This document shows, in pieces, positions 55,299 to 56,278 of a stretch of DNA of 64,000 bases. Positions within the stretch are counted from its first letter, which is position 1; every line of letters begins with the position of its first letter. The position numbers and the translations under genes were made by a program. Source of the stretch: Escherichia coli (lineage in GTDB: Bacteria > Pseudomonadota > Gammaproteobacteria > Enterobacterales > Enterobacteriaceae). The stretch lies in NCBI RefSeq assembly GCF_030384885.1, contig NZ_CP128613.1. The stretch is one strand, 5' to 3'. The notes beneath the pieces are model-generated. The model saw only the letters and a program-made list of their open reading frames with translations. It did no database searches and was not told the origin of the DNA.

Positions 55299-56278
55299 AT
55301 GCGCAAATATCGTCTAAGTGAAGAACAGCGAGCCTTTAGTTATCAGGATGATGGCACTAAAAAAAGTGTGTTATTATGGCAAATTATCGCCATGAGCGAT
55401 TTTAACGATGTGATAGCAGGAACCGCTGGCGGCTGGATCGATCGCGAAACGGTGTTAGCACAGGAAGGAAATTGCTGGATTTACGACCAGAATGCTATTG
55501 CGTTCGGCGGAACGGTGATTTCCGGTAATACGCGTATCACCGGCACCAGCGTCCTTTGGGGAGAGGTTTACGCAACGGATAACGTCTGGATCGATAATAG
55601 TGAAGTCAGTCAGGGTGCATATATAAGTGACAGTGTCACCATTCGTGACTCATTAGTTTGCGGTCAATGTAGAATATTTGGTCACGCTTAATTGATCAAC
55701 ATTCTATGATCGTCGCCGCGCAAGGCTTAACCTCCGACCATCAACTCCTGCTACAAATTTATGATCGCGCAAGGGTTAGCGCCTCGCGTATTGTCCACCA
55801 GGCACAAATTTATGGCGATGCCGTCGTCCGGTATGCTTTTATTGAACATCGCGCCGAAGTTTTTGATTTTGCCAGTATTGAAGGTAATGAAGAGAACAAC
55901 GTCTGGCTATGCGATTGCGCTAAAGTCTACGGTCACGCGCAGGTGAAAGCTGGCATAGAAGAAGATGCCATTCCGACAATTCATTACAGTTCGCAGGTAG
56001 CGGAATATGCCATTGTGGAAGGTAATTGTGTGTTAAAACATCATGTCTTGATTGGCGGAAAGGCAGTGGTACGTGGCGGACCGATTCTGCTCGACGAACA
56101 CGTTGTAATACAAGGTGAGAGCCGTATTACAGGTGCGGTGATAATTGAAAACCATGTGGAGTTGACCGACCACGCCGTCGTTGAAGCCTTTGATGGCGAC
56201 ACGGTTCATGTCCGTGGTCCAAAAGTCATTAACGGCGAAGAGCTCATTACGCGAACGCCGCTGGCAGGGTTATTGTGA
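55299..56278 (+). pseudogene. ydcK: ydcK-like left-handed beta-helix protein, interrupted by a frameshift/stop near 55689
   Basis: A 130-aa ORF (frame 0, stop TAA 55689-55691) and a 190-aa ORF (a different frame, from 55706) together cover about 326 codons. Confidence 0.6.

Follow-up and report, generated by a model that had tools for sequence, protein, structure and literature searches.

An interval of the 64,000-nucleotide stretch of Escherichia DNA analysed here (the window) holds two adjacent open reading frames (ORFs) in different frames between tehA and rimL, and the question raised by this locus is whether they represent two genes, one broken gene or one intact gene that has been misread. 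The initial annotation took them for a single ydcK-like beta-helix gene, split either as a real pseudogene or through a single-base sequencing error. We compared the locus with protein family profiles, with intact and interrupted ydcK alleles and with public genome and read-set assemblies, and we weighed these two options together with readings under which a working product would still be made.

Two reading frames cover one ydcK gene

The first ORF, the 5' fragment of ydcK (55299..55691, plus strand), starts at an ATG at 55299 and runs for 130 codons to a TAA at 55689-55691. By alignment these codons correspond to residues 1-130 of intact YdcK and are identical, up to the gap described below, to the allele of 2013C-4282. 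The 3' part of the gene lies in a shifted frame on the same strand (55673..56278), which is open from 55673, directly behind a TAG at 55670-55672. It contains a 190-codon ORF that begins at an ATG at 55706, equivalent to Met137 of the intact protein, covers residues 137-326 and closes with a TGA ending at 56278. The initial annotation had placed both ORFs at precisely these coordinates and lengths.

Both ORFs match the NCBIfam model NF040481 (YdcK_fam, "YdcK family protein"), an equivalog with a 326-position profile and a curated cutoff of 350 bits. The 130-residue ORF aligns with positions 1-130 of 326 (E = 1.5e-56, 191.7 bits) and the 190-residue ORF with positions 137-326 of 326 (E = 4e-102, 341.4 bits). 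Both matches are far past chance level, and either ORF alone falls below the 350-bit cutoff. Conceptual repair of the frame gives a product of 326 residues that is identical to the YdcK of 2013C-4282 and scores 553.7 bits over positions 1-326. In addition, Pfam searches returned left-handed beta-helix (LbH/hexapeptide) matches in both fragments, and the YdcK beta-solenoid repeat (PF18836; 37.3 bits against a cutoff of 30) matched residues 17-32 of the second ORF, which are residues 153-168 of the intact protein. The NF040481 and LbH matches together bear out the identification as a ydcK-like beta-helix gene.

The surroundings are those of ydcK elsewhere. Gene order is tehB-tehA (minus strand), ydcK (plus), rimL-ydcH-opgD (minus) in the window and in annotated genomes alike, and ydcK sits between tehA and rimL in Escherichia. 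The divergent upstream gene tehA (54183..55175, minus) is intact and encodes 330 amino acids as in the reference annotation; the tehA-ydcK intergenic region holds the native ydcK start region. On the other side, rimL (56270..56809, minus) is convergent with ydcK and also intact. A 540-nt rimL is annotated in 2013C-4282, and the rimL ORF taken from its first possible start spans 56270..56824. The coding 3' ends of ydcK and rimL overlap by 9 bp (56270-56278), and the pair is included in a set of excludons defined by RNA-seq in E. coli K-12 (PMC12288877). A promoter scan of 55100-56900 found no sigma-70-like sites, and terminator-like hairpins in the same region occurred at chance level only. Judged by sequence, synteny and domain content, the locus belongs to the YdcK family, although neither present product is a complete member, and the alignments indicate that the two ORFs are pieces of one ydcK gene.

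A one-base deletion accounts for both the frameshift and the stop

Alignment with 2013C-4282 and E. coli 042 places the lesion at 55686..55688 (plus strand), where the window reads G-C-T and the intact genes read G-C-C-T. A CC pair has lost one C here, which turns GCC into GC; the gap follows window base 55687 and lies at ydcK nucleotide 388/389 of 981, in codon Ala130. Intact genes thus encode His-Ala-Leu-Ile at this point (CAC GCC TTA ATT), whereas the window has CAC GCT TAA; the indel is not a multiple of three relative to intact orthologues, and everything 3' of the lesion is read in the -1 frame. The C was removed from the CC dinucleotide at codon 130 by a replication-type slip.

When the 981-nt gene was compared base by base with the 2013C-4282 allele, this 1-bp gap was the sole difference. 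Alignment with intact ydcK was among the checks that the initial annotation had proposed, and the lone gap that it shows agrees with the single-base cause suggested there. The initial annotation had also spoken of a frameshift and a stop. The frameshift stands, but the stop is not a separate event: because the intact allele differs by nothing but the gap, the TAA at 55689-55691 is the stop that the shifted frame reaches first and not a second mutation, and an independent nonsense mutation is ruled out. In annotation, the two ORFs are one frameshifted ydcK pseudogene, rather than two hypothetical proteins.

The deletion recurs in independent data

Single-base indels are the commonest error in long-read assemblies. 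The nearest complete genome, that of 2013C-4282, has the extra C and an intact ydcK (WP_074500982.1), and it is otherwise nearly identical to the window (2 SNPs in 35 kb). Both points would fit a genome that truly reads GCC, in which ydcK is intact and the C was dropped in base-calling or consensus polishing. We therefore surveyed the distribution of the deletion. A 1,151-base query around the gene had matches in 5,412 of 5,426 complete E. coli genomes; the best 30 places listed for it all span 1,152 bases, one above the query, and the extra C is present in at least 5,398 complete E. coli genomes that align across the region. A 61-mer junction query had matches in 3,873 complete RefSeq E. coli genomes, of which none reached 99% identity or carried the deletion. 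Approximately 1,550 genomes were without a match to this shorter query, where nearby SNPs presumably break the 28-mer seeds; in alignments to the longer query, these too have the extra base. That thousands of other genomes from all sequencing platforms are without the deletion speaks against an error, as does the site itself, a CC dinucleotide with no long homopolymer.

Other sequences also carry the lesion. An exact-sequence look-up in a public protein collection placed the 130- and 190-residue products each on about 7 contigs. The same deletion is present in the Logan assemblies of ERR2987533 (on a 57-kb contig), SRR34938331, SRR34489103 and SRR32234830, whose four contigs, with the deletion, share 100% identity with the window over 2.1-6.4 kb, and there are 6 more similar places besides these named runs. 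The window and one of these Logan runs may come from a single isolate. The NCBI assembly GCA_036346665.1 also carries the deletion; over 18.7 kb it shows 2 SNPs relative to the window, one of which (55483 A to T) changes Y62 to F in the stub. The lesion is thus reproduced in a separate assembly with SNPs of its own and in contigs from at least four unrelated run accessions, whose submissions lie years apart. Because it is identical in the contigs of several read sets and in GCA_036346665.1, the deletion is not a one-off error; the identical DNA and products in other runs and assemblies rule that out as the main explanation, and we regard loss of the base in base-calling or polishing as very unlikely. 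The pattern tracks ancestry, not sequencing technology, and from these comparisons the deletion is, we infer, inherited within a small clone.

Of the two options in the initial annotation, these data favour the real pseudogene. The window very probably carries a genuine, recent loss-of-function allele of ydcK that belongs to a small Escherichia clone close to the cryptic-clade-I genome 2013C-4282. The latter is a stx1-positive member of Escherichia cryptic clade I and among the few complete clade I genomes (2023; PMC10100065). Across 28980-64000 of the window, 2 substitutions and the ydcK gap are the only differences from 2013C-4282 in 35 kb. Divergence is higher in the left part, where 57 positions differ over 26 kb (50 of them substitutions, the others gaps) and two segments of the Rhs/VgrG region are missing. 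With few differences on the right side and more on the left, the source of the window is a close but distinct relative of 2013C-4282. Around ydcK, most E. coli genomes share only 95-99% identity with the window, and identity over 24 kb is typically ~96-98%. The window appears, from these identities and from its nearest complete genome, to derive from an Escherichia cryptic clade I background, and the lesion would be a true clonal marker of a small sublineage of that clade, not an error to correct.

Neither recoding nor reinitiation is likely to restore a product

A real deletion could still be compatible with a working protein if the two frames were joined during expression. The second frame is shifted by -1 with respect to the first, and both are open over 55673-55688, an arrangement that programmed -1 ribosomal frameshifting or transcriptional slippage might exploit to restore the full-length product. 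This 16-nt overlap, which reads AGA ATA TTT GGT CAC GCT, is the sole stretch that would allow a shift back, and it contains neither an X XXY YYZ slippery heptamer nor a homopolymer run. Nor is a two-frame organisation conserved: the protein is encoded in one frame by all other Escherichia and Salmonella genes, and a recoding signal cannot have arisen around a one-base loss that is only a few SNPs old. Recoding is, on these grounds, vanishingly improbable.

Alternatively, the lesion may have produced a split but working gene, in which both the 130- and the 190-residue polypeptide are produced, the latter through termination-reinitiation at ATG 55706, and assemble as a functional two-piece beta-helix. 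Only 14 nt separate the stop from this ATG, bacterial termination-reinitiation over such a gap is possible even without a Shine-Dalgarno sequence, and the second ORF is intact and identical across carriers. However, no Shine-Dalgarno pairing was found in the 22 bases preceding 55706, where the duplex dG is +0.6 kcal/mol compared to -4.2 at the native start, and anti-Shine-Dalgarno pairing is weaker than at 91% of the ATG triplets in window positions 40000-64000. Residues 131-136 would also be absent from the middle of the solenoid. With 2-3 differences separating it from its relatives over 19-35 kb, the allele is too young for the intactness of the ORF to reflect selection, and the other ydcK alleles found in nature are simple nonsense mutations. 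We consider a working split gene extremely unlikely, and with neither a slippery site nor a Shine-Dalgarno sequence found, programmed frameshifting and reinitiation were both rejected.

For a simple frameshifted allele, translation from the native start would leave the frame at the lesion and stop one codon later, which would give a 130-residue N-terminal stub of the 326-residue protein. The second ORF, with neither a ribosome-binding site nor a recoding signal, would receive little or no translation, and its 190 codons may remain open simply because there has been too little time for further decay. Compared with intact Escherichia ydcK (WP_074500982.1 of 2013C-4282; b1428 of K-12), the window allele occupies the same locus and has the same bases bar one C, but it is broken at codon 130 and offers no single ORF at the family cutoff. 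The Salmonella YdcK structures 2F9C and 2PIG, structural-genomics entries named "hypothetical protein YdcK" and "putative transferase" by their depositors, are collinear over residues 1-325 with no gaps (E = 1.8e-139). They display a left-handed beta-helix (hexapeptide/solenoid) fold, and the window allele would supply no more than its first 130 residues. A continuous left-handed beta-helix is not expected to form from either piece, and for that reason the gene is probably functionally dead and the allele, as read from its sequence, is best regarded as null. No classical polar effect on rimL is expected, because rimL is convergent.

ydcK has been lost more than once

Pairwise dN/dS among four ydcK alleles is 0.13-0.22, which indicates that the ancestral gene was functional and under purifying selection in Escherichia. 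Nevertheless, other interrupted alleles exist. A nonsense allele, E198*, splits the gene into ORFs of 197 and 111 amino acids and is present in 8 complete RefSeq genomes, including 2013C-4991; its 111-residue product occurs in 545 blocks of a contig index, on many contigs. A second, W203*, is found in GCA_006232755.1. These alleles affect the same gene with the same outcome, two ORFs in place of one in surroundings that are otherwise intact, but they are independent events at other positions and on other haplotypes (31-35 nucleotide differences from the window allele). They are also nonsense substitutions in contrast to the indel in the window, and E198* is the more widespread. In a laboratory evolution line, a 1-bp deletion at ydcK nucleotide 299 reached a frequency of 68.9% (PMC9769844).

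The literature on the gene is thin. A full-text search for "ydcK" returned no study devoted to YdcK by title, and the mentions in the papers examined were passing ones, in which ydcK was named merely as a "predicted enzyme" or "uncharacterized protein" or appeared with rimL in a list of convergent overlapping pairs (PMC2831072, PMC12288877). Loss of ydcK is probably tolerated because YdcK is non-essential and has no assigned function. The window allele is one further natural knockout of this conserved gene, which suggests that ydcK is dispensable under some natural conditions at least.

With at least three natural knockouts (the 1-bp deletion, E198* and W203*) and the laboratory-line deletion, it is conceivable that loss of ydcK is adaptive rather than neutral, or that early termination of ydcK reduces convergent read-through into rimL and so changes RimL levels; we think this improbable. 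The allele is an ordinary, lineage-restricted frameshift pseudogene of a known gene and reveals nothing mechanistically new.

Other features of the window compared with 2013C-4282

Several further features distinguish the window from 2013C-4282 or are shared with its annotation. In the Rhs/VgrG region, ~2,507 bp of the rhs core gene are missing relative to 2013C-4282, which leaves an ORF at 26601-28124 (minus strand) of 507 amino acids compared to the 1,406 annotated. The adjoining vgrG lacks ~1,871 bp, most of the gene, and its ORF at 28381-29013 (minus) encodes 210 amino acids compared to 702. This shorter region (26601-29013) may reflect either a true deletion or the collapse of a repeat.

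At 23048-24610, about 50 substitutions lie on or beside an ISAs1-family transposase gene (ORF 22898-24034, minus), with flanks nearly identical to 2013C-4282; this clustering suggests that another IS copy is present or that the segment is a patch of recombination. A 505-amino-acid ORF (24241-25758, minus), located between the ISAs1 element and the Rhs region, is the counterpart of ltrA, annotated in 2013C-4282 as a group II intron reverse transcriptase/maturase. Relative to 2013C-4282, a six-base insertion (ATCCTC, 9077-9082), in-frame in length, falls within a hypothetical-protein gene that adjoins a leucine-rich-repeat protein gene. Finally, ~48016-48252 corresponds in position to a hicB antitoxin remnant of 2013C-4282, where the annotation lists it as a pseudogene that lacks the N-terminus.
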